64,000 nucleotides of DNA, from assembly GCA_963706445.1 (NCBI GenBank), contig OY970160.1:1376001-1440000 (forward strand), given 5' to 3'. The DNA is from an uncultured Nitrososphaerales archaeon. GTDB taxonomy: Archaea > Thermoproteota > Nitrososphaeria > Nitrososphaerales > Gagatemarchaeaceae. Below the pieces are notes generated by a model. It was not told where the DNA came from, did not search any database, and saw nothing but the letters and a program-made list of their open reading frames with translations. Positions 54,577 through 64,000 of the stretch are shown here, piece after piece. The translations under genes were made by a program, and so were the position numbers. Numbering within the stretch: position 1 is the stretch's first letter; each line of letters begins with the position of its first letter.

Positions 54577-54661
54577 TGCGGGGGGAGGGATTCGAACCCT
54601 CGAACCCCTAAGGGATGGGAGCCTCAGTCCCACGCCGTTGACCATGCTGGGCGACCCCCGC
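54577..54661 (-). tRNA. tRNA-Leu(GAG), no intron
   Basis: GCGGGGG acceptor, TGGGA-CTGAGGC-TCCCA, long variable arm, GAGGG-TTCGAAT-CCCTC. Confidence 0.95.
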
Positions 54662-54748: not shown

Positions 54749-54840
54749 GCCGGCGTAGCTCAGCCTGGTAGAGCACACCCAAGTTGGGGCTCAGACGCCT
54801 CGTAAGCGTGGGGTCCCGCGATCAAAGCGCGGCGCCGGCT
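54749..54840 (+). tRNA. tRNA-Thr(CGT) with 18-nt intron at 27/28 (54777-54794)
   Basis: BHB GAGC AC|A CCCA-AGT-TGGG GCTC AG|A; spliced anticodon arm CACGC-CTCGTAA-GCGTG. Confidence 0.9.
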
Positions 54841-54845
54841 CGCTT

Positions 54846-55337
54846 TTACTTTGACGACCTGGTGCTGGTTTCTCGGAGCCTGCTCATCTCGGTCAGCTCG
54901 AAGGGGAAGACGACCCACTTGTCAACCACTTCTAGGTAGTATTCGGGCTCGAACTTGCTCCATGGTTTCTTGAACAGGACGGCCGTCTCAAGAAGTTTCG
55001 GGTTCTGTCCATTGAGGTACTTCTTCACAGTCTCCATCGTGTCACCCTGGTCGACAAGATCATCGACCACTAGGATGTTCTTTCCCGCTACACCCTCGCT
55101 GAGAGTCGAGAGGATTTTGGGACTGTTTCTCTGGCCTATCCCTTCATATGATTTCACGTTGATGAAATCGATTGTAACCCCCAGGTGGTCAGAGACCACC
55201 ATGGCAACGGGCATCCCTCCTCTGGCGATCCCGATGACGATATCAAATTTCACTCCTCTGGAACGTACCTTCTCCGCCAAGGCCTGGGCGAGGTTGCCGT
55301 ACTCGGGCCAGCTGATGTACCTGAACTCGGTCAACAA
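54846..55337 (-). CDS. purine (hypoxanthine/guanine/xanthine) phosphoribosyltransferase
   Basis: GIARGG, LVVDDLVDQGDT, WVVFPFE. Confidence 0.85.
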   Translation of the reverse strand: MLTEFRYISWPEYGNLAQALAEKVRSRGVKFDIVIGIARGGMPVAMVVSDHLGVTIDFINVKSYEGIGQRNSPKILSTLSEGVAGKNILVVDDLVDQGDTMETVKKYLNGQNPKLLETAVLFKKPWSKFEPEYYLEVVDKWVVFPFELTEMSRLRETSTRSSK

Positions 55338-55523
55338 TCAACCGAGCGGGGTCTTTGTAGATAACCATTCGAATGGGGATTCGCACGAGGTTGCAAAGTC
55401 GGAATGATTCAAGAAGAAATCACGAACACTTAAATCACGATTTTCTCTCGTTGGTTTTGACGTTCAAGGTCTTCTGTTTGTCAATGAGACACACCCGGAG
55501 CTCGCACGAGTAGGCGCGGAGGA

Positions 55524-56477
55524 TTGTCTGGAGAACTCGTCGTCGTAGCCCTCGGAGGGAACGCCCTTCTTCAGCGTTCGCAGAAGGGTACATTCGATGA
55601 TCAGTATGCCAACGTCAAAAGGACGGCGGAGAAGATCGCCGACCTGGTCCAGGGCGGGTATGAGATCGTGCTCACCCATGGCAACGGCCCTCAGGTCGGG
55701 GCGACGCTCCTGAGGCACGAAGCCGGCAAAGGGCTCGTCCCCCCGCTCCCTCTCGACGCATGCGGTGCCGAAACCCAGGGCTTCATCGGCTACATGATCC
55801 AGCAAGCGCTCAGGAACGTGCTGAAGTCTCGTGGAGTGGACAAGTACGTGGTCACAGTCGTGACGAGGGTCATTGTCGACAAGCATGATCCCGCGTTCGA
55901 GCATCCGACGAAGCCCGTCGGGCCCTTCTACACGAAAGAGGAAGCCGTCCGTCTGAGCCAGAGCATGCCAAACATGACGATCAAGGAAGACGCAGGACGC
56001 GGATACAGAAGGGTTGTACCTTCCCCCGACCCGAAGGTGATAGCCGAGAGGTCTGCCATTCGGACTCTCGTGGACGCGGGCTTCGTGGTAGTGTCGACGG
56101 GGGGCGGAGGGATTCCGATAGTCGAGGAAGATTCGCAAGCAAGGGGGGTAGAAGCGGTGATCGACAAGGACCTTGCCGGCCAGCGCCTCGCCACCTTGAT
56201 CCACGCGAACATCTTCGTGATACTCACGGACGTCGACGGGGCTTACTTGGGTTTCGGAACCCCAAGGCAGGAGCTCATCAAAGAGGTGACGACCGGGAAG
56301 CTGCAAAGATACTTAGACGAAGGACAATTCAAGGAAGGGAGCATGGCACCCAAGGTGCTCGCCGCGATACGTTTCGTCGAAAGCGGCGGAGAAAGGGCGA
56401 TAATAGCAGAGCTTGGAAAGTTGCCTGAAGCGTTGGCGGGCAAGTCAGGTACGCAGGTGGTAGGTCCAGGGGCTTGA
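55524..56477 (+). CDS. arcC: carbamate kinase
   Basis: ALGGNAL, THGNGPQVG, RRVVPSP, EAVIDKD, GSMAPKV. Confidence 0.96.
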   Translation: MSGELVVVALGGNALLQRSQKGTFDDQYANVKRTAEKIADLVQGGYEIVLTHGNGPQVGATLLRHEAGKGLVPPLPLDACGAETQGFIGYMIQQALRNVLKSRGVDKYVVTVVTRVIVDKHDPAFEHPTKPVGPFYTKEEAVRLSQSMPNMTIKEDAGRGYRRVVPSPDPKVIAERSAIRTLVDAGFVVVSTGGGGIPIVEEDSQARGVEAVIDKDLAGQRLATLIHANIFVILTDVDGAYLGFGTPRQELIKEVTTGKLQRYLDEGQFKEGSMAPKVLAAIRFVESGGERAIIAELGKLPEALAGKSGTQVVGPGA

Positions 56478-56486
56478 CCTTTCGCC

Positions 56487-57863
56487 TTGGCCGACCCTAG
56501 CTCCGTTCTGATCGAAGACGCCATAATAGTCACCATGGACCCTCGACGGAGGGTCATCGAAGGGGGGCATGTCCTCGTCGAAGGGGGAAGGATATCCGCA
56601 ATCGCTGGGCCGGGTTCGAAGGCGAGACTCAAGGCAGAGCAGACGATCTCGGCGAAAGGGATGGCCGTGATACCGGGACTGATTGACACTCACATCCATC
56701 TGGCCCAGAGCCTCCTGAGAGGGTGCGCAGACGACCTCTCTCTGGTCGACTGGCTGAAGAAAAGGGTCTGGCCCATCCAGGGGTGCTTCACCACGAGCGA
56801 CGGAAGGGTTAGCGCCGAACTCTCGATGCTGGAGATGGTCAAGAGCGGGACCACTTCGTTCGTCGGGGTCGATGTCGTGTCAAGGTATGGGTTCGACGGG
56901 ATAGCGGACGCGGTGGTCGGGGCTGGGATGAGAGGGGCGCTGGCCAAGACGATCATGGACAGCCCAGGATACGGGAGGAAAGGGAGCATGATGCCCGCGG
57001 GGCTCGTGGAAGAGAAAGACGAATGCATCAGAGAAGCGAAATCAATGATCAGGAAGTGGAACAGAATCAAAGGGGGCCGGGTAAGGACCTGGGTAGCCCC
57101 GAGATCCCTTGGCGGGTGCAGCAGGGAGCTCTATGAGGAGGTAGCCGAGCTCGCAAATGAACAGGATACGAGGGTGACGATGCACCTGGCAGAGGTGAGC
57201 GAGGACGTCAAATACGCGAAGGAGAACTTCGGGCTGACTCCTTTCGGGTTCATCGAGAAGGTGAGTCTGGCGGGCCCCCGCTCGCTCTTCGCCCACATGG
57301 TCTGGCTCAGCGACGGCGACGTTGGGAAGGTGGGAAAGACGAAGTCCAACGTGGCGCACTGCCCTTCGTCCAATCTCAAGCTTGCGTCAGGCATTCCAAA
57401 GGTGCCCGAACTGTTGCGGGCGGGGGCGAACCTCGGGCTCGGGTGCGACGGCGCCCCGTGCAACAACTCCCACGACATGATAAGGGAGATGAAACTCGCG
57501 GCAGTGATACAGAAGGGGAGGCTACTCGACCCGCTCACGATGCCCGCCGCGACGGTACTGGAGATGGCGACCCTTGGGGGAGCCCGGGCCATGGGGATGG
57601 AATCGGATGTGGGGTCCATCGAAGTCGGGAAGAGGGCGGACCTGGTGCTCATCGACCTGAAGAAACCCCATCTTGTCCCATACAGAGACATCGTGTCGAA
57701 CTTGGTCTACTCCGCCATGGGGAGCGACGTCGACAGCGTGATGGTGGACGGCAAGCTCCTTCTCCGGCGAGGGAGGGCCCTGACCCTCGACGAAGAGAAG
57801 ATCATGGGTGAGGCGCAGAAGCGGCAGGACGAGCTTATCTCAAGGTCAGGCGTCGGTGCCTAG
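56487..57863 (+). CDS. metal-dependent amidohydrolase (MtaD/nucleobase deaminase family)
   Basis: DTHIHLAQ, MHLAE, HCPSSNLKLASG, GCDG. Confidence 0.9.
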   Translation: MADPSSVLIEDAIIVTMDPRRRVIEGGHVLVEGGRISAIAGPGSKARLKAEQTISAKGMAVIPGLIDTHIHLAQSLLRGCADDLSLVDWLKKRVWPIQGCFTTSDGRVSAELSMLEMVKSGTTSFVGVDVVSRYGFDGIADAVVGAGMRGALAKTIMDSPGYGRKGSMMPAGLVEEKDECIREAKSMIRKWNRIKGGRVRTWVAPRSLGGCSRELYEEVAELANEQDTRVTMHLAEVSEDVKYAKENFGLTPFGFIEKVSLAGPRSLFAHMVWLSDGDVGKVGKTKSNVAHCPSSNLKLASGIPKVPELLRAGANLGLGCDGAPCNNSHDMIREMKLAAVIQKGRLLDPLTMPAATVLEMATLGGARAMGMESDVGSIEVGKRADLVLIDLKKPHLVPYRDIVSNLVYSAMGSDVDSVMVDGKLLLRRGRALTLDEEKIMGEAQKRQDELISRSGVGA

Positions 57864-57875
57864 GAAGTCCGGGCA

Positions 57876-59249
57876 GTGGATCTCCTGGTTACGAACGCTA
57901 GAGTAGTCACCGGCTCCCAGGTCGTCGAGGCAAACATAGGGGTAGAAGACGGGAAAATCGCCTCGGTTTCCCCCAGCCTCCAAGCCACGGGGGCCAGGGT
58001 CATCGATGCGGAGGGGATGATAGTCGTCCCCGGGGGGATAGATGCCCACACCCACATGGAGCTCCCTGTCACTAACACCTCGTCGGCGGACGACTTCTAC
58101 TCGGGGACCGTAGCCGGGGCCTGCGGCGGAATAACGACGATAGTAGATTACGTCGACCCCCAGGCAGGTCAGACGATGCTCGAAGCAGTAGCCGATTACA
58201 GACTGAGGGCGGACAGCAAGGTGGCGGTCGACTACGGCCTGCATATGATGTTCAAGGGGCAGCAACTTCCCGAAATCGACAGGATCCCCGACCTGGTCGA
58301 GGAGGGGATCCCGAGCTTCAAGGTCTACACGGCGTACAGGAAGCGGGGGTTGATGCTGGAAGATCAAGACATCTCAAGGGTGATGAAGAGTGTGGCGTCG
58401 ACCGGGGGGCTGGTAGCCGTGCACGCCGAGAGCGAGGGGATGATCGAGCGCCTGACCAAGGAGAACCTGGCTGTTGGAAACGTGGGGACGAGGTACCATG
58501 CGCTGAGCAGGCCTCCGGCTGCCGAGGCAGAAGCGATATCCAGGGTCACCCGGCTGGCGGACGAAGCCGGGGCGAGGATCTACATCGTCCACCTTTCTAG
58601 CAGGGCGGGGAAGGAGGAGGTCGAGGGGGCGAGGAGGCGCGGGACGAATGTGTTCGCCGAGACATGCCCTCACTACCTGGTCCTCACTGACGATGTCTAC
58701 GAAAGGGAGGACGGACGGAACTTCGTCATGTCACCGGCACTGAAGAAGCCAGAAGATCGCGCCGCCCTCTGGGAAGGGCTGAAGGCAGGTGGGGTCATCG
58801 AGACTGTCGGGAGCGACCACTGCCCGTTCCCGAGCTCGCAGAAGGACTGGGGGATGGACGATTTCACGAAGATACCTAACGGGGTTCCCGGGACGGAGGC
58901 TATCATCCCCATCCTGTACTCAGAAGGGGTGAGGAAAGGGCGAATCTCGATCTACGATATGGTCAGGGTGATATCGGAGGGGCCTGCGAGGCGCTTCGGG
59001 CTCACCCCGTCGAAGGGGTCCATCGCCGTCGGTTCGGATGCAGATTTCGTAGTCATCGACCCGAACAAGCGCGTGAGGATGACCGCGGAGGTGATGCACA
59101 GCAACATCGACTACAGCATCTACGCCGACGTCACGACCGAGGGGTACCCGGTCCTGACGGTGAGCAGGGGGGAGGTCGTGATGGAGGACGGCGAGTTCGT
59201 CGGGAAGAAGGGATGGGGCAGGTTCGTTCCTAGAAGGGCCGCGTCGTAG
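57876..59249 (+). CDS. hydA: dihydropyrimidinase / D-hydantoinase
   Basis: PGGIDAHTH, SFKVY, VHAE, ETCPHYL, SDHCPF, IPNGVPG. Confidence 0.93.
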   Translation: MDLLVTNARVVTGSQVVEANIGVEDGKIASVSPSLQATGARVIDAEGMIVVPGGIDAHTHMELPVTNTSSADDFYSGTVAGACGGITTIVDYVDPQAGQTMLEAVADYRLRADSKVAVDYGLHMMFKGQQLPEIDRIPDLVEEGIPSFKVYTAYRKRGLMLEDQDISRVMKSVASTGGLVAVHAESEGMIERLTKENLAVGNVGTRYHALSRPPAAEAEAISRVTRLADEAGARIYIVHLSSRAGKEEVEGARRRGTNVFAETCPHYLVLTDDVYEREDGRNFVMSPALKKPEDRAALWEGLKAGGVIETVGSDHCPFPSSQKDWGMDDFTKIPNGVPGTEAIIPILYSEGVRKGRISIYDMVRVISEGPARRFGLTPSKGSIAVGSDADFVVIDPNKRVRMTAEVMHSNIDYSIYADVTTEGYPVLTVSRGEVVMEDGEFVGKKGWGRFVPRRAAS

Positions 59250-59288
59250 CGCCCGCTCAGGTGGACTGGTCAGATGAGGAGCCGAACC

Positions 59289-60653
59289 CTAGCCCAGGGG
59301 CTCCACAGCTTCCGACGGAGATGACCCAAGCCTGCGCCAGAGACCGTCCATGGCCTTCAGCACTTTCGCTTCGGATTTCTGAAGGTCGACCCTCAGGACC
59401 TGCTTGCTTCTCATAATCAATTCGCCGTCCACCACCACGTCCCTCACGTTCGGCCCCTTCAGGCCGTTCACAATGTAGCCGTAGACAGAACCGGCGTAAG
59501 GCGTGGCCAGGAACGACGGACGCACCACGATCAGGTCGGCCCGCTTGCCAGCTTCGAGGGACCCGAGGGACTTCAGCTCATAGGCTTTCGCCGCGTTGAC
59601 GGTGCACATCTCGACGACTTCCTGGGGAGACGGCCTGTTCGGATTCCTCCTCGCCACCCTCTGCAGGAGGAAGGCGGCGCGCATGTTCTCGAACATGTCG
59701 AAGATGTACCCGTCGTTGCCGGCACAGACGTTCACCCCCTTGTCAAGCATCTCCAGAAGGGGAGCGACGCCGACGGCGTTGAGCATGTTGCTCATGGGGT
59801 TGTGGGCAATGCTTGCCGATGAGGCGGCAATCAGATCAATCTCCTCCTCGCTCAGATGGACGCAGTGGGCGAGTACAGACCTCGACGACAGGAGGCCTAC
59901 GTCCTTCAGCCTCTCGACGGACCTCTTGCCATAGCGCTCCATGTTGTGGTAGCCGTCGTTGGGTCCCTCCGAGACGTGGATGGTGAGCGGGACCCTGTGC
60001 TTCTCACTGGCCTCCGCCCCCCGCGAAAGCAGGTCGTCCGAGACGGTGAACGATGCGTGGAGGCTTACCATCCCCATGGCCCTCCCCTTGTCTTTCTTCG
60101 CGATGAACCTCAGACTCTCCTTCAGCCCCCTTCTCCCTTCCTCGATGCTCCTCCTCTCCGTCGCCTCGAATGAGATTATGCCCCTGATGCCAACTTCGTT
60201 CGAAGCCTTCGCGATTTCGTCGAGGGAGCCTTCTATCGAGTTGGGGGCGGAGTATGTGTCCGCAAAGCAAGTCGTCCCGTTCATCAGCGACTCGACGGAC
60301 GCCGACAGGGTCGTCGCATAGGCGTCGGCGTTGGTAAGCGCCTCGTCCACGGGCCACCACACCCTCTGGAGGATCTGAAGGAAGTCTGACGGGGGCTTCA
60401 CGTTCAGCGCTGACCCCCTGAGGGCTATCCCGTACAGATGGGTATGGCCGCAGATGAGCCCCGGCATCACAATGCACCCCCTCGCGTCGATCACCTCGTC
60501 GGGCCCGAAACCCCGGGCGACTCTGTCTGACGGTCCCACGGCAAGTATCCGGCCGTCTTCGATGGCTACGGCTGAATCGTAGATGACTCTCCTGTGTTCG
60601 TCCATGGTCACCACGGTGCCCCCCTTCACGAGGAGTTTGCTTGACAAGGGCAA
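59289..60653 (-). CDS. ssnA: SsnA-like amidohydrolase
   Basis: MPGLICGHTHLY, DFLQILQRVWWPVD, SFEATER, HASFTV, HNPMSNMLN, DMFE match recalled SsnA features. Confidence 0.8.
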   Translation of the reverse strand: MPLSSKLLVKGGTVVTMDEHRRVIYDSAVAIEDGRILAVGPSDRVARGFGPDEVIDARGCIVMPGLICGHTHLYGIALRGSALNVKPPSDFLQILQRVWWPVDEALTNADAYATTLSASVESLMNGTTCFADTYSAPNSIEGSLDEIAKASNEVGIRGIISFEATERRSIEEGRRGLKESLRFIAKKDKGRAMGMVSLHASFTVSDDLLSRGAEASEKHRVPLTIHVSEGPNDGYHNMERYGKRSVERLKDVGLLSSRSVLAHCVHLSEEEIDLIAASSASIAHNPMSNMLNAVGVAPLLEMLDKGVNVCAGNDGYIFDMFENMRAAFLLQRVARRNPNRPSPQEVVEMCTVNAAKAYELKSLGSLEAGKRADLIVVRPSFLATPYAGSVYGYIVNGLKGPNVRDVVVDGELIMRSKQVLRVDLQKSEAKVLKAMDGLWRRLGSSPSEAVEPLG

Positions 60654-60667
60654 TCACCGACTCTTCG

Positions 60668-61681
60668 CTACGCCAGCGACTTGACCACGTATTCGATGTT
60701 GCCACTGAGTGGAAGGAGTAGTGGGGACTTGCACCCGGCGGCCATGTACTCCTCGATCTTGGCTCTGCACTCTTGAGGCGTCCCCGACGCGGTGAGCATG
60801 CGGACGATCTCGTCTGGCACGATCTTCGTCGCTCTCTCGATGCCCCCTGGCTTGGCTGGCCACCCGCCCATCTCCTTCTGGACGGCGGCAATCAGGTCCT
60901 CGGCCACCCCACTCGCCCTCATGATGTGCGGCTGCTGCCCCAGGGTCATGGTTACATGGCTCTTGGCAAGCTTCACGGCCTTGTCGGAATCCTCGTCCAT
61001 CGAGCATGCGATGAGTTGAGGGGAATCAATCTTGTCGGGGTCCCTTCCAGCCTTCTGAGCCCCGCGCCTGATGCTCTCCCAGGCCTTCTTGTTGTATTCC
61101 GGAGATACGAGGTAGTTCAGCAGGACGCCGTCGGCTATCTCGCCTGCGAGCTCGAGCATCTGGAATCCAGTCCCGCCGATGTATATGGGGACAGCTCTCG
61201 GACCCGCCCCAGTCCCGTGCAGGGTGTCGAGGCTCACGCCGTCCATCTTGACGAACTCCCCCTGGAAGGTGACCTCTTCGGCGTTGAACAGTCGTTTGAT
61301 TACCTGTACGTACTCTCTCATGCACAGTAGGGGCTTGGTCCTGTCTATCCCCACCTTCTTCGCGAGTGGGTCCCACCATGCCCCGAGACCCAGGATGGCC
61401 CTCCCCGCTGAGAGCTCGTCGAGGGTGGCCCAGGTCTGGGCGATTAGGGCGGCGTTCCTAGTCCAGGTGTTTATGACGCCGGCCCCCACCTTGATCCTCT
61501 TTGTGTCCGTCGCGATGGCGGTTACGGGGACGACTGCGTCCCTTGCCAGCCTCGACTCTGCAATCCAGACAGAATCGAACCCATGGTCTTCCGCCACCTG
61601 TGAGAACCTGACCATCTCCCGGACGTGCATGTCCTGGAGGTACAGTCCCAGCCTGCTCAACGAGCCTGGAGCTTTGGACAA
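60668..61681 (-). CDS. LLM-class (Mer-like, possibly F420-dependent) oxidoreductase
   Basis: GFDSVWIAE, TLDELSAGRAILGLG, PIYIGGTG..MLELAGEIADG. Confidence 0.88.
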   Translation of the reverse strand: MSKAPGSLSRLGLYLQDMHVREMVRFSQVAEDHGFDSVWIAESRLARDAVVPVTAIATDTKRIKVGAGVINTWTRNAALIAQTWATLDELSAGRAILGLGAWWDPLAKKVGIDRTKPLLCMREYVQVIKRLFNAEEVTFQGEFVKMDGVSLDTLHGTGAGPRAVPIYIGGTGFQMLELAGEIADGVLLNYLVSPEYNKKAWESIRRGAQKAGRDPDKIDSPQLIACSMDEDSDKAVKLAKSHVTMTLGQQPHIMRASGVAEDLIAAVQKEMGGWPAKPGGIERATKIVPDEIVRMLTASGTPQECRAKIEEYMAAGCKSPLLLPLSGNIEYVVKSLA

Positions 61682-61844
61682 CCGTTTCGCCTCAATCGCA
61701 GGCCTTCACATTCGATTTAAAGCAATTCCCTATCTGGGCCTGCAGTCCGAGCCTCCGGTAGGTCCCAAGTCCACATTGGGCGAATCTCTTTTCTTTGCAT
61801 GGACAATACTTATAGAATATCGTCGGTCCGTTAAATTTTCCAAA

Positions 61845-63194
61845 TTGGGAGAGATAACTGCAATCGCCAATGGGGTAGTCATTACAGTCGATCGTAGCGA
61901 CACAATCTACGGAGACGGCGCGGTAATAGTCGAAGATGGAAGGATAATCGATGTTGGTAAGACGGACGAAATCCTGCCAAAGTATAGAAAGGATATTGTC
62001 ATTGATGCGAAGAAGTGCGCAGTGCTACCTGGTTTTGTGAATGCTCACTTTCACTCTGGCACCATCCGAGGAATTGCCGAAGACCTTCCACTGTGGGAGT
62101 GGCTTAGAAGATACATTGATCCGAAGCACCGTGTTCTGACCCCAAGCGATGCCCATGCTTCATCCAGGCTTTGCTACACAGAATCCATCAAAGCGGGCGT
62201 AACCACTGTGCTCGACATGGAGAGGTTCATGGATAGATGTGCTGATTCGGCCGAAGAGGTCGGGCTTAGGGCGGTTCTCGCACCATATGTTTCTGATAAA
62301 TTCGAAGGCTTCGAAAAGCCGGAGGACAACTACAGGCTATTGGCCGAGAGAAATGGCTCGGCGAACGGCAGGGTCAACGTCTGGCTCGGCATGGAGCATC
62401 TGATGTATTGCAGCGAAGAACTCTACAGAAAAGGGGCCGAGCTCGCAAGAAAATACAACGTCGGGATACACACCCACGGGGAAGAGTCAAAAGAGATGGC
62501 AGAGAGGATAACAAAAGAACACGGCGGAAGAAGACCCACGAAGGTTCTGCGCGACTACGGAATCCTAGGGCCACGTACCGTCTTGGCTCACTGCGTCTGG
62601 CTGGATGACGAAGAGATGGGAATAATAGCCGAAACCAAAACCTCCGTAGCTCATTGTCCGGTGAGCAATTTCAAGCTTGCAAGTGGAGTTGCAAGGGTTC
62701 CGGAAATGCTAGGTCTAGGGATAGTAGTGGGCCTTGGAAGTGACGGCATTGAGGAAAACAACAGGATTGACCTCATGCAGGAGATGAAGATGGCTGGACT
62801 GATTCAGAAGGGAACGCATAGAGACGCAACTCTCATGCCCGCGAAAAAGCTGCTTAGGATGGCAACAATCGATGGTGCGACAGCGCTTGGGCTCGGAGGC
62901 GAGGTCGGGTCTTTAGAGAGAGGAAAGAAGGCGGATATCTCGATCCTAGATCTAAATCAACCCCATTTGACACCCGCGCTCACCGGAGAGTTCTTCAATG
63001 TGGTAAGCAACATAGTGTACGCTGCGCAATCTGATGACGTACAAACGGTAATGGTCGACGGTAGAGTGATAATGGAGAATAGAAAGATTGCTCACCTGAA
63101 CGAGCAGGAAATCATTGATGAAGCAACAAAAGCTTCCGTTGGAGTTCTTGAGAGAATAAAGGAACTCGTCCCGCCTGATATCAAGTCGAAGTAA
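61845..63194 (+). CDS. metal-dependent amidohydrolase (MtaD-like)
   Basis: NAHFH, HTHGEE, HCPVSNFKLASG, GSDG; TTG at 61845 downstream of TTATA. Confidence 0.9.
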   Translation: MGEITAIANGVVITVDRSDTIYGDGAVIVEDGRIIDVGKTDEILPKYRKDIVIDAKKCAVLPGFVNAHFHSGTIRGIAEDLPLWEWLRRYIDPKHRVLTPSDAHASSRLCYTESIKAGVTTVLDMERFMDRCADSAEEVGLRAVLAPYVSDKFEGFEKPEDNYRLLAERNGSANGRVNVWLGMEHLMYCSEELYRKGAELARKYNVGIHTHGEESKEMAERITKEHGGRRPTKVLRDYGILGPRTVLAHCVWLDDEEMGIIAETKTSVAHCPVSNFKLASGVARVPEMLGLGIVVGLGSDGIEENNRIDLMQEMKMAGLIQKGTHRDATLMPAKKLLRMATIDGATALGLGGEVGSLERGKKADISILDLNQPHLTPALTGEFFNVVSNIVYAAQSDDVQTVMVDGRVIMENRKIAHLNEQEIIDEATKASVGVLERIKELVPPDIKSK

Positions 63195-63293
63195 CCGCGA
63201 TTCGCTTAGGTCGACTAACGAGTTAGACGCCTACAACCGGAGAACTGCGACCCTGCGTCAAATATTAAAACCAATCAATTCCGCGTGACTGAT

Positions 63294-64000
63294 ATGACTC
63301 GGGAAGTGGATCTGCTAATCAAGGGTGCAGACATCCTTACTTTGGACCCTAGCCGCCCCGAGCTGCGCAACCATGACGTCGCCATTAAGGATGGGAAAAT
63401 CGTCGAAGTCCAGGCAGGCCTAAGATACGATTCTAAACTTGATGTGGCAGGGAAAGGAAAGGTCGTTCTGCCCGGTCTTGCCGACTGTCACACCCACTGT
63501 TTTCAGATTTTTCTTAGAGGCTCGCTTTCCGCAAGAGACAGAACCATACATCCGATCTGGTTGAAGGTCCTGATGCCGTTTGAAGCGGATATGCAAGAGG
63601 ACGAGGCGCAGGTCAGCGCAGAACTCGCATGCCTTAACATGATTAGAAAAGGGATAACCGCCTTCGCCGACGCAGGAGGGCCCTATCCTCAGACCCTTGC
63701 CAGGGTGGCCGAGGACGCAGGACTCAGGGCAAGGATAACCCACTCGACCATGGACAAAGGACCTGAGAACTACAACCGAGGAATCAAGTACAACAAAAAG
63801 CTGGTCAGCCAACTCAAGGGTCCAAGGGTCAAGGGCTGGTATTCGATTCGACAGATCATGGTCTCGAGCGACGAGCTCATCGAAGAAACCATCGCGGAAG
63901 CGAGGAAGGACGATGTGGGAATCCACATCCATCTTAATGAGGAAACATCTGAAATCGAACATTCGATGACTCGTTGGAACGAAAGACCATTCGAACACTT
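63294..64000 (+). CDS. metal-dependent amidohydrolase (partial, runs off the window)
   Basis: Manual translation MTREVDLLIKGADILTLD...VLPGLADCHTHCFQ...IHIHLNE. Confidence 0.88.
   Translation, partial: MTREVDLLIKGADILTLDPSRPELRNHDVAIKDGKIVEVQAGLRYDSKLDVAGKGKVVLPGLADCHTHCFQIFLRGSLSARDRTIHPIWLKVLMPFEADMQEDEAQVSAELACLNMIRKGITAFADAGGPYPQTLARVAEDAGLRARITHSTMDKGPENYNRGIKYNKKLVSQLKGPRVKGWYSIRQIMVSSDELIEETIAEARKDDVGIHIHLNEETSEIEHSMTRWNERPFEH

Follow-up and report, generated by a model that had tools for sequence, protein, structure and literature searches.

Introduction

Urate can be degraded reductively in bacteria by a pathway established by Li et al. 2025 (Life Metab, PMC12507026) and Liu et al. 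2025 (bioRxiv 10.1101/2025.04.24.650524). It starts with the reduction of urate to 2,8-dioxopurine by XdhD or DOPDH (Li et al. 2025; Liu et al. 2025). YgfK (DOPOR) then reduces 2,8-dioxopurine using NADPH, yielding a product that is detectable only when SsnA is present (Li et al. 2025). Subsequently, HyuA opens the hydantoin ring, YgeW and YqeA generate ATP, and the final steps are carried out by YgeY and YgeX (Li et al. 2025; Liu et al. 2025). Among three xanthine isomers, YgfK is specific for 2,8-dioxopurine (Liu et al. 2025), and Glu606 of XdhD has been linked to the formation of this compound (Li et al. 2025). To date, the only enzyme known for the ring-reducing step is YgfK, an oxygen-sensitive Fe-S flavoenzyme; the step has also been inferred for UacX. 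Here, we describe a locus from an uncultured Nitrososphaerales archaeon of soil in which a gene for a Mer-like LLM oxidoreductase, an enzyme of the F420 type, occupies the YgfK position, immediately upstream of a gene for an SsnA-type amidohydrolase. The locus lies at the end of the window, that is, the 64,000-nt stretch of contig OY970160.1 (positions 1,376,001 to 1,440,000) that was analyzed. This part of the window makes up the leading third of an accessory island of 27.7 kb, which runs from window position 54842 to about 82400 (genome 1430842–1458400).

The replacement of YgfK by an F420 enzyme was proposed by Li et al. 2025 (PMC12507026) for Chloroflexota, as a bioinformatic proposal only. 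In the same study, an F420-type SsnA uricolytic cluster was defined as an SsnA-family gene with a PF00296 gene within 15 genes and with neither YgfK nor UacX. Archaea go unmentioned in Li et al. 2025 and in Liu et al. 2025. Apart from Li et al. and a commentary, our search of the literature on SsnA in archaea, or on F420 in connection with isoxanthine or dioxopurine, yielded nothing; we found no paper that deals with archaea and no biochemical test of the F420 enzyme.

We consider the most likely function of the locus to be purine degradation along the reductive uric-acid route, with the F420 enzyme acting as a YgfK analogue; we put the probability of this reading at roughly 0.6. The original prediction, made from the letters of the window, had likewise proposed that an F420H2-dependent Mer-like reductase replaces YgfK in an anaerobic urate pathway, and had called this an undescribed variant. 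The substance of that proposal is probably right. By contrast, the concept was already in print, as a prediction for Chloroflexota, the Xdh enzymes lack the XdhD insert, and the host is not an anaerobe. The novelty lies in the archaeal, oxygen-respiring host, in the altered downstream steps and in the comparative evidence. If the reading is correct, the LLM enzyme would add a reaction on a purine ring to those known for F420, the reductive urate route would be confined neither to anaerobes nor to bacteria, and archaea of soil, peat, hot springs and hypersaline sites could gain nitrogen and ATP from nucleobases.

Comparison with described uricolytic clusters

In Escherichia coli and Clostridium sporogenes, the pathway is encoded by xdhD-ygfM, ygfK, ssnA, hyuA, ygeW, ygeY, ygeX and yqeA. 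The archaeal locus encodes homologues of three of the E. coli proteins: SsnA (31.6% identity), HyuA (39.6%, full length) and YqeA (45.7%). It also encodes Xdh-family enzymes and transcarbamylases, its reductase gene stands immediately upstream of ssnA, as does ygfK, and carbamoyl phosphate would again yield ATP. By contrast, the reductase is an LLM TIM barrel rather than a 1032-residue Fe-S flavoprotein, and its hydride donor would be F420H2 instead of NADPH. The archaeal set further differs in having no YgeX or YgeY, in its non-YgeW transcarbamylases and in the lack of the XdhD insert.

The locus also resembles the F420-type clusters of Chloroflexota. In both, an SsnA-family gene is accompanied by a PF00296 LLM gene without YgfK or UacX, the LLM proteins are 52–57% identical over their full length, and ThrC-like and CysK-like genes recur. 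As regards the definition of Li et al., the archaeal LLM and SsnA genes are adjacent, separated by 14 bp, YgfK is absent, and the sole DHO_dh domain scoring above cut-off, probably PyrD, is 1.3 Mb from the island. The two versions nevertheless differ in several respects. The archaeal host respires oxygen. Its LLM and SsnA genes are directly adjacent, whereas in Chloroflexota an F420 module lies between them; in the archaeon, the F420 genes lie at other sites of the genome, and no FO synthase was found. The Xdh enzymes are three-subunit and XdhA-like, as opposed to the fused, XdhD-like enzymes of Chloroflexota. Finally, the archaeal version has two carbamoyltransferases, no YgeY and an SsnA of a separate subclade that scores below the family cut-offs.

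The LLM oxidoreductase resembles Mer on its cofactor side

Proteins were assigned to families by their Pfam and NCBIfam profile scores relative to curated cut-offs, and open reading frames (ORFs) and gaps were taken from the sequence. The LLM oxidoreductase (60668–61681, minus strand) matched PF00296 with 239 bits. Its 16 best NCBIfam matches were all F420 families or Mer, the highest being the equivalog model F420_mer (TIGR03555; 207.6 bits, below the cut-off of 348.7), and families of the flavin mononucleotide (FMN) type scored at most 55 bits. In a sequence search of the Protein Data Bank (PDB), Mer was again closest, at 166 bits versus at most 47 bits for FMN-type structures. The predicted structure of the LLM (predicted local distance difference test score, pLDDT, of 88.7) matched Mer with F420 (8QPL, 1Z69) with a template modelling (TM) score of 0.85–0.89, a root-mean-square deviation of 2.3–2.7 Å and 31–32% identity. 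The folds ranked 1 to 26 were all F420 enzymes; the best FMN fold had a TM score of about 0.70–0.75.

The active site was compared with that of Mer, for which Gehl et al. 2024 (PMC11094777) described an F420 backstop formed by the cis-peptide Gly61-Val62 in jMer, a substrate-side Asp96 and a catalytic Glu6. Gly68-Val69 of the LLM, a putative non-prolyl cis-peptide, aligns with the Gly61-Val62 backstop after strand 3; across 78 orthologues, its invariance is 97% or higher. At the end of strand 6, Asn189 aligns with Mer position 178, and the carboxamide is invariant. On the substrate side, Mer Asp96 aligns with Trp103, which lies within an invariant GAWWDP motif. The catalytic Glu6 of Mer has no counterpart in the LLM, in which Tyr14, Gln16 and Asp17 stand at the end of strand 1. 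Tyr14 probably takes the place of Glu6, although this assignment is uncertain, the mapping having been made by eye from strand positions in the model, outside the HMMER alignment. Overall, the cofactor side of the enzyme looks Mer-like and the substrate side unlike Mer; the substrate-side residues map to no known purine site.

The LLM therefore shares with Mer the fold, the Gly-Val backstop and the strand-6 carboxamide, and the substrate of Mer is likewise a fused N-heterocycle. It differs in scoring below the equivalog cut-off, in having Trp103 for Asp96, in lacking a counterpart of Glu6 and in belonging to a host that is not a methanogen. Given its score and active-site residues, the LLM was rejected as a true Mer. 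Nor is it a member of the YgfK family: the folds, an LLM TIM barrel and an Fe-S flavoprotein, are unrelated, and the LLM is thus a candidate analogue only. The orthogroup comprises 78 full-length members with 84 positions that are at least 97% invariant, many of which are not common to the five LLM paralogues of the host, and is marked by the GAWWDP and QQPH motifs. We predict that the enzyme in the YgfK position is an F420H2-dependent oxopurine reductase, its substrate being 2,8-dioxopurine, and regard this assignment as more probable than any other.

LLM orthologues co-occur with SsnA

The LLM alignment was scanned over one genome per species, which yielded 80 loci with 52–85% identity, many of them on short contigs. 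The hosts include Caldarchaeales, Nitrososphaerales, Conexivisphaerales, Bathyarchaeia, Halobacteriales, Chloroflexota, Actinomycetota and Acidobacteriota. At least one purine-cluster gene occurred within 10 kb of the LLM gene at 56 of the 80 loci. An SsnA-type gene was present within this distance at 46 loci, being directly adjacent at 19. Within the same distance, ThrC-like and CysK-like genes were each found at 20 of 80 loci, YgeY at 8, YgeX at 2 and YgfK at none. Three Acidobacteriota genomes with the LLM had only ambiguous amidohydrolase matches (197–213 bits).

We also examined a sample of 251 genomes of the class Nitrososphaeria, which are related, such that the counts are not independent. 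LLM and SsnA orthologues were each present in 23 of these genomes: 21 had both, two had the LLM only, two had SsnA only and 226 had neither. The four genomes with a single orthologue are incomplete. YgfK was found in none of the 251. In addition, an SsnA orthologue (51–56% identity) is present elsewhere in the genome in each of the five Bathyarchaeia that carry the LLM. The tight LLM-SsnA pair occurs in the present genome and in Caldarchaeales. Co-occurrence of the two genes is stronger than their adjacency.

Several expectations of the original prediction are borne out by these data. NCBIfam ranks, fold and backstop all point to a Mer-like LLM of the F420 type, and its linkage to SsnA is conserved, as judged from the 46 of 80 loci and the 21 class genomes with both. 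There is also no genuine ygfK: the best match in the host genome scored 245 bits, with a GltD-like segment only, versus a cut-off of 835 for TIGR03315, and neither the class genomes nor the LLM loci contain the gene.

In Chloroflexota, the LLM is further tied to F420 by gene order. The gene cofC lies at most 1 kb upstream of the LLM gene at 26 loci, all of them from Chloroflexota (26 of 33 loci of this phylum), and in most of the 26 it is preceded by fno, cofE and cofD. The Thermoflexus operon, for example, encodes ThrC-like and CysK-like proteins, a genuine SsnA (529 bits), Fno, CofE, an FbiB C-terminal domain, CofD, CofC and the LLM, followed by an XdhD-like fused enzyme.

Orthologues of the LLM (54–55% identity) are also carried by the cultured haloarchaea Haloarcula salina YGHS18 (L059) and Haloarcula japonica DSM 6131 (L060), which offer an experimental system. 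In H. salina (L059 3296–15290), the LLM gene is directly preceded by genes for two BMP/PnrA-type binding proteins and an ABC transporter, by type a putative nucleoside or nucleobase importer; ThrC-like, hydantoinase and SsnA-type genes follow downstream. A separate observation concerns a 7.7-kb contig binned as Bifidobacterium breve (L062), which carries an SsnA-LLM-Xdh cluster and looks like a mis-binned actinobacterial contig.

The SsnA-type protein is a probable divergent archaeal SsnA

The SsnA-type amidohydrolase is encoded at 59289–60653 on the minus strand. Between it and the LLM gene lies a 14-bp spacer (60654–60667, minus strand), which extends from the TAG stop codon of the LLM gene to the TTG start codon of the SsnA gene and contains a GGTGA ribosome-binding motif. 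SsnA was the best family of the protein (NF005540, 375.6 bits), the next family scoring 285 bits, about 90 bits lower. Within the E. coli cluster, its best BLAST match was E. coli SsnA, at 192 bits; the three paralogous amidohydrolases of the locus scored 81–95 bits against the same protein.

In a tree of 58 cluster amidohydrolases, made quickly and with a limited outgroup set, all SsnA-type rows fell into one clade of 38 rows with an SH-aLRT support of 100. This clade contained archaeal, Chloroflexota, Actinomycetota and E. coli SsnA, with the archaeal rows forming their own subclade. Amidohydrolases A and C fell outside the clade, and amidohydrolase D was a long-branch sister to it. The metal ligands His70, His72, His226, His263 and Asp314 are kept in the SsnA-type protein. 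Moreover, Phe91, Trp99, Asp103, Glu163, His199, Asn292, Val294 and Trp439 are invariant in the SsnA clade and were present in 0 of the 20 non-SsnA rows. We therefore treat the protein as a divergent archaeal SsnA and predict that it is the ring-opening hydrolase for a reduced purine; the reaction of the SsnA family would yield ureidomethylhydantoin from reduced 2,8-dioxopurine.

Proposed pathway

In the proposed pathway, amidohydrolases A, C and D, an adenine deaminase and two Xdh-type molybdoenzymes would convert purines to an oxopurine, which would be 2,8-dioxopurine by analogy with bacteria. The LLM would dearomatise the ring by transfer of a hydride from F420H2, and Fno would regenerate F420H2 from NADPH. 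The SsnA-type hydrolase, co-transcribed with the LLM, would open the reduced ring at once, pulling an unfavourable reduction forward; the 14-bp spacing of the two genes fits the SsnA coupling that YgfK needs in vitro. The hydantoinase, as the HyuA equivalent, would open the second ring to give 2,3-diureidopropionate. Two non-YgeW carbamoyltransferases would then release carbamoyl phosphate, from which the sole carbamate kinase would form ATP, and a ThrC-like or CysK-like enzyme dependent on pyridoxal phosphate (PLP) would act in the place of YgeX. Such a pathway may be active in this strain.

Several of these enzymes are encoded beyond the window. The original prediction noted that the window lacks the carbamoyltransferase, YgeX, YgeY and Xdh, which is correct, and it pointed to the DNA past position 64000. 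Inspection of that DNA revealed two Xdh sets and two carbamoyltransferases, the carbamoyltransferases and Xdh being sited 4.6–18 kb past the window end. YgeX and YgeY, however, were found neither there nor elsewhere in the host genome, in which the best matches scored 35 bits (cut-off 274) and 124 bits (cut-off 321.5), respectively, and the carbamoyltransferases are not YgeW orthologues (153 and 147 bits versus a cut-off of 453). The absence of YgeY and the presence of two carbamoyltransferases are compatible with, but do not demonstrate, release of the two ureido groups in the form of carbamoyl phosphate.

The ThrC-like PLP enzyme scored above the cut-off of NF006050, and the CysK-like enzyme is divergent (L001:13436-15737, window 73436–75737). 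Neither is a YgeX orthologue, as no BLAST match was obtained at an E value of 1e-5. Both are encoded at the expected place of YgeX, and both are found repeatedly in SsnA clusters of the F420 type, namely in archaea, Chloroflexota, Actinomycetota and haloarchaea (e.g. L057:45-4171; L059:11062-12333). This recurrence and the shared PLP fold type make them candidates for the diaminopropionate step of YgeX.

Both Xdh enzymes are three-subunit, and their large subunits are closer to XdhA (33% identity) than to XdhD (29%). The second large subunit (L100:1226-3571, window about 78226–80571) is XdhA-like and 41% identical to the first; this second Xdh may make the LLM substrate. According to the Glu606 region, neither is an XdhD-type urate 6-dehydroxylase. 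No match to 5-hydroxyisourate (HIU) hydrolase or to 2-oxo-4-hydroxy-4-carboxy-5-ureidoimidazoline (OHCU) decarboxylase was found in the host genome, and there is thus no sign of an oxidative urate route. The genome, a single contig of 1.82 Mb that is rated 95% complete and is archaeal by its small and large subunit rRNA, contains two heme-copper oxidase subunit I genes, which indicates that the host respires oxygen and is not an anaerobe.

As to the cofactor, the statement in the original prediction that Nitrososphaerota make F420 holds in part. The host genome encodes CofD (C1:965874-966770), two CofE (C1:966784-967521 and 1747606-1748202) and two Fno (C1:10055-10675 and 1296897-1297484), all scoring above cut-off, as well as six LLMs, but CofG and CofH were not found. 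The host may scavenge FO or use an unrecognised FO synthase. The second fno gene adjoins another LLM paralogue (C1:1296897-1298217), suggesting a further F420 module unrelated to the island.

A broader proposal can be put forward only tentatively, and we consider it rather doubtful as a whole. It holds that F420H2-dependent oxopurine reductases form a widespread family, horizontally shared and present in Nitrososphaerota, Bathyarchaeia, haloarchaea, Chloroflexota and Actinomycetota, which would render the 'anaerobic' reductive purine pathway oxygen-tolerant; the Fe-S flavoenzyme would be dispensable. In the archaeal version, two new transcarbamylases would convert both ureido groups to carbamoyl phosphate, giving two ATP per purine, and a ThrC-like/CysK-like pair would replace YgeX.

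Weighing of the alternatives

A number of findings weigh against a reductive urate route with the LLM in the place of YgfK. For the whole orthogroup, we infer both the substrate of the LLM and the direction of its reaction. The SsnA-type protein is below both curated cut-offs of its family, scoring 375.6 versus 444 with NF005540 and 350.9 versus 455.5 with TIGR03314 (IPR017700). An alignment of the relevant region showed that neither Xdh large subunit has the 11-residue XdhD insert that holds Glu606, and the step that forms 2,8-dioxopurine is consequently without an identified enzyme. The carbamoyltransferases score higher with acetylornithine and ornithine carbamoyltransferase models than with YgeW. 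In the one-contig, 95%-complete host genome, no match to the FO synthase genes cofG and cofH was found, and the F420 supply therefore rests on an unexplained source of FO. In several Nitrososphaeria families (f11, f6 and f10) and in Bathyarchaeia, LLM and SsnA co-occur without being adjacent; in these Nitrososphaeria families, the two genes are usually on different contigs or 190 kb apart (e.g. G063:C2:76399-77724 and 269404-270387). Because the complete same-genus genome G164 lacks the island, the island is accessory and dispensable. Finally, three neighbouring genes midway along the island, encoding a nucleotidyltransferase-like protein, an APC permease and a metallophosphoesterase, are frameshifted (window ~64900–68600; L001:4936-8594).

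Some of these points would be accommodated if the same chemistry, F420H2-dependent ring reduction followed by SsnA-type hydrolysis, served another substrate, such as xanthine, urate, 6,8-dioxopurine or a different oxidised N-heterocycle, without 2,8-dioxopurine as an intermediate. The missing insert with the glutamate that Li et al. tie to 2,8-dioxopurine formation, the proximity of both Xdh enzymes to XdhA, the separate subclade and low scores of the archaeal SsnA, and the LLM substrate-side residues that match no known purine site are all consistent with this explanation. It is nonetheless set against the eight clade-specific invariant residues common to archaeal and E. coli SsnA, the specificity of YgfK among the xanthine isomers, and the Chloroflexota clusters in which LLM orthologues of 52–57% identity stand beside a 529-bit SsnA and XdhD-like fused enzymes. 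We consider a change of substrate unlikely, but a serious competitor. A reductive pyrimidine or hydantoin pathway would require the LLM to be an analogue of dihydropyrimidine dehydrogenase and the hydantoinase to be a dihydropyrimidinase, with a carbamoyltransferase in place of beta-ureidopropionase and with unrelated deaminase or hydroxylase functions for the Xdh- and SsnA-type genes. The hydantoinase does pass the dihydropyrimidinase equivalog TIGR02033, and there is no PydA-like gene nearby, the sole DHO_dh above cut-off being the distant one. However, E. coli HyuA is of the same hydantoinase family and serves the urate pathway, and SsnA has no role in the pyrimidine route. Furthermore, in different phyla the co-occurrence of the LLM is specific to SsnA and Xdh, and the genes that flank the cluster encode an adenine deaminase, hydrolases resembling guanine deaminase and a purine phosphoribosyltransferase. 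Together, these observations make a pyrimidine pathway very improbable.

The oxygen-respiring host, and the many FMN monooxygenases contained in PF00296, would suit an oxidative pathway in which the LLM, like RutA or SsuD, were an FMNH2-dependent monooxygenase, opening or hydroxylating the ring with O2. Against this, FMN-type families and structures scored far below the F420 types (at most 55 versus 207 bits in NCBIfam; at most 47 versus 166 bits in the PDB), the best FMN fold was inferior to Mer (TM about 0.70–0.75 versus 0.85–0.89) and the F420 backstop Gly-Val is invariant. In addition, orthologues occur in operons with fno and cofCDE, and no flavin reductase partner was seen in the cluster. 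A monooxygenase role is accordingly the least credible of the explanations, and we give it hardly any weight. It is also conceivable, if improbable, that the island, whatever it did originally, was acquired horizontally, is now decaying and no longer works in this strain. The frameshifted trio, which is intact in the syntenic metagenome-assembled genome (MAG) L023, the absence of the island from G164 and the missing FO synthase speak for decay. Each of the three genes is split over two or three frames, and the APC permease, the likeliest importer, is spread over at least three. By contrast, the frameshifts are limited to one 3.7-kb stretch, some 20 enzyme genes of the island are all full-length and stop-free, and the island carries the only carbamate kinase found in the genome. 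The disruption of the trio could be local pseudogenisation or a local assembly error.

Gene layout and island boundaries

The eight genes of the locus in the window have the families, orientations and 14-bp LLM-SsnA gap that the original prediction described, on which ORFs, profiles and sequence agree. The plus-strand operon begins with the carbamate kinase gene (55524–56477), whose product scored 426 bits with TIGR00746 (arcC) versus a cut-off of 358; a tblastn search of the genome found no second copy. After 9 bp follows amidohydrolase A (56487–57863, plus strand), a TRZ/ATZ-guanine-deaminase-type protein (PF01979, 241 bits) whose best NCBIfam matches are deaminase and chlorohydrolase families, each below cut-off. 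It is probably a purine deaminase that feeds the pathway. A gap of 12 bp separates amidohydrolase A from the hydantoinase/dihydropyrimidinase gene (57876–59249, plus strand; TIGR02033, 489 bits versus a cut-off of 393), which is convergent with the SsnA gene at a distance of 39 bp. Upstream of the carbamate kinase operon and divergent from it lies a gene for a purine-type phosphoribosyltransferase of salvage (54846–55337, minus strand; PF00156, 96 bits). Xanthine phosphoribosyltransferase and hypoxanthine-guanine phosphoribosyltransferase are its best NCBIfam matches, each below cut-off, and the gene also adjoins the cluster in MAG L023.

Island content amounts to four or five deaminase-type hydrolases, two carbamoyltransferases, two Xdh sets, the adenine deaminase, the carbamate kinase, the hydantoinase, the SsnA-type protein and the LLM. 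Past the window, the order is the three frameshifted genes, a seven-gene minus-strand operon, the second Xdh set on the plus strand and the adenine deaminase gene. The seven-gene operon encodes carbamoyltransferase 2, the CysK-like and ThrC-like enzymes, the Xdh large, FAD and 2Fe-2S subunits, and carbamoyltransferase 1.

According to ARAGORN, two tRNA genes mark the near boundary. The gene for tRNA-Leu(GAG) (54577–54661, minus strand) belongs to the conserved flank just outside the island, in a stretch that matches G164 at 80% identity. The island begins directly past the 3' end of a 93-nt tRNA-Thr gene (54749–54841, plus strand), which is probably intron-bearing. In G164, both flanks are present with about 4.2 kb between them, compared with 27.7 kb here, and there are no LLM and SsnA orthologues. 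No att-like repeat of the tRNA-Thr 3' end was found at the far end of the island and the annotated genes include no integrase; integration at the tRNA gene is therefore unsupported.

Between the LLM-SsnA operon and the divergent gene for amidohydrolase C lies a putative divergent promoter region (61682–61844), with a TTTAAAT sequence about 35 nt upstream of the LLM start. Amidohydrolase C (61845–63194, plus strand; TRZ/ATZ type, PF01979, 230 bits) is probably a deaminase and is missing from MAG L023. From the sequence, its start was set at the TTG at 61845 and not at the start of the long ORF at 61179. Amidohydrolase D, also of the TRZ/ATZ type (PF01979), is encoded on the plus strand at 63285–64625 and spans the window end at 64000.

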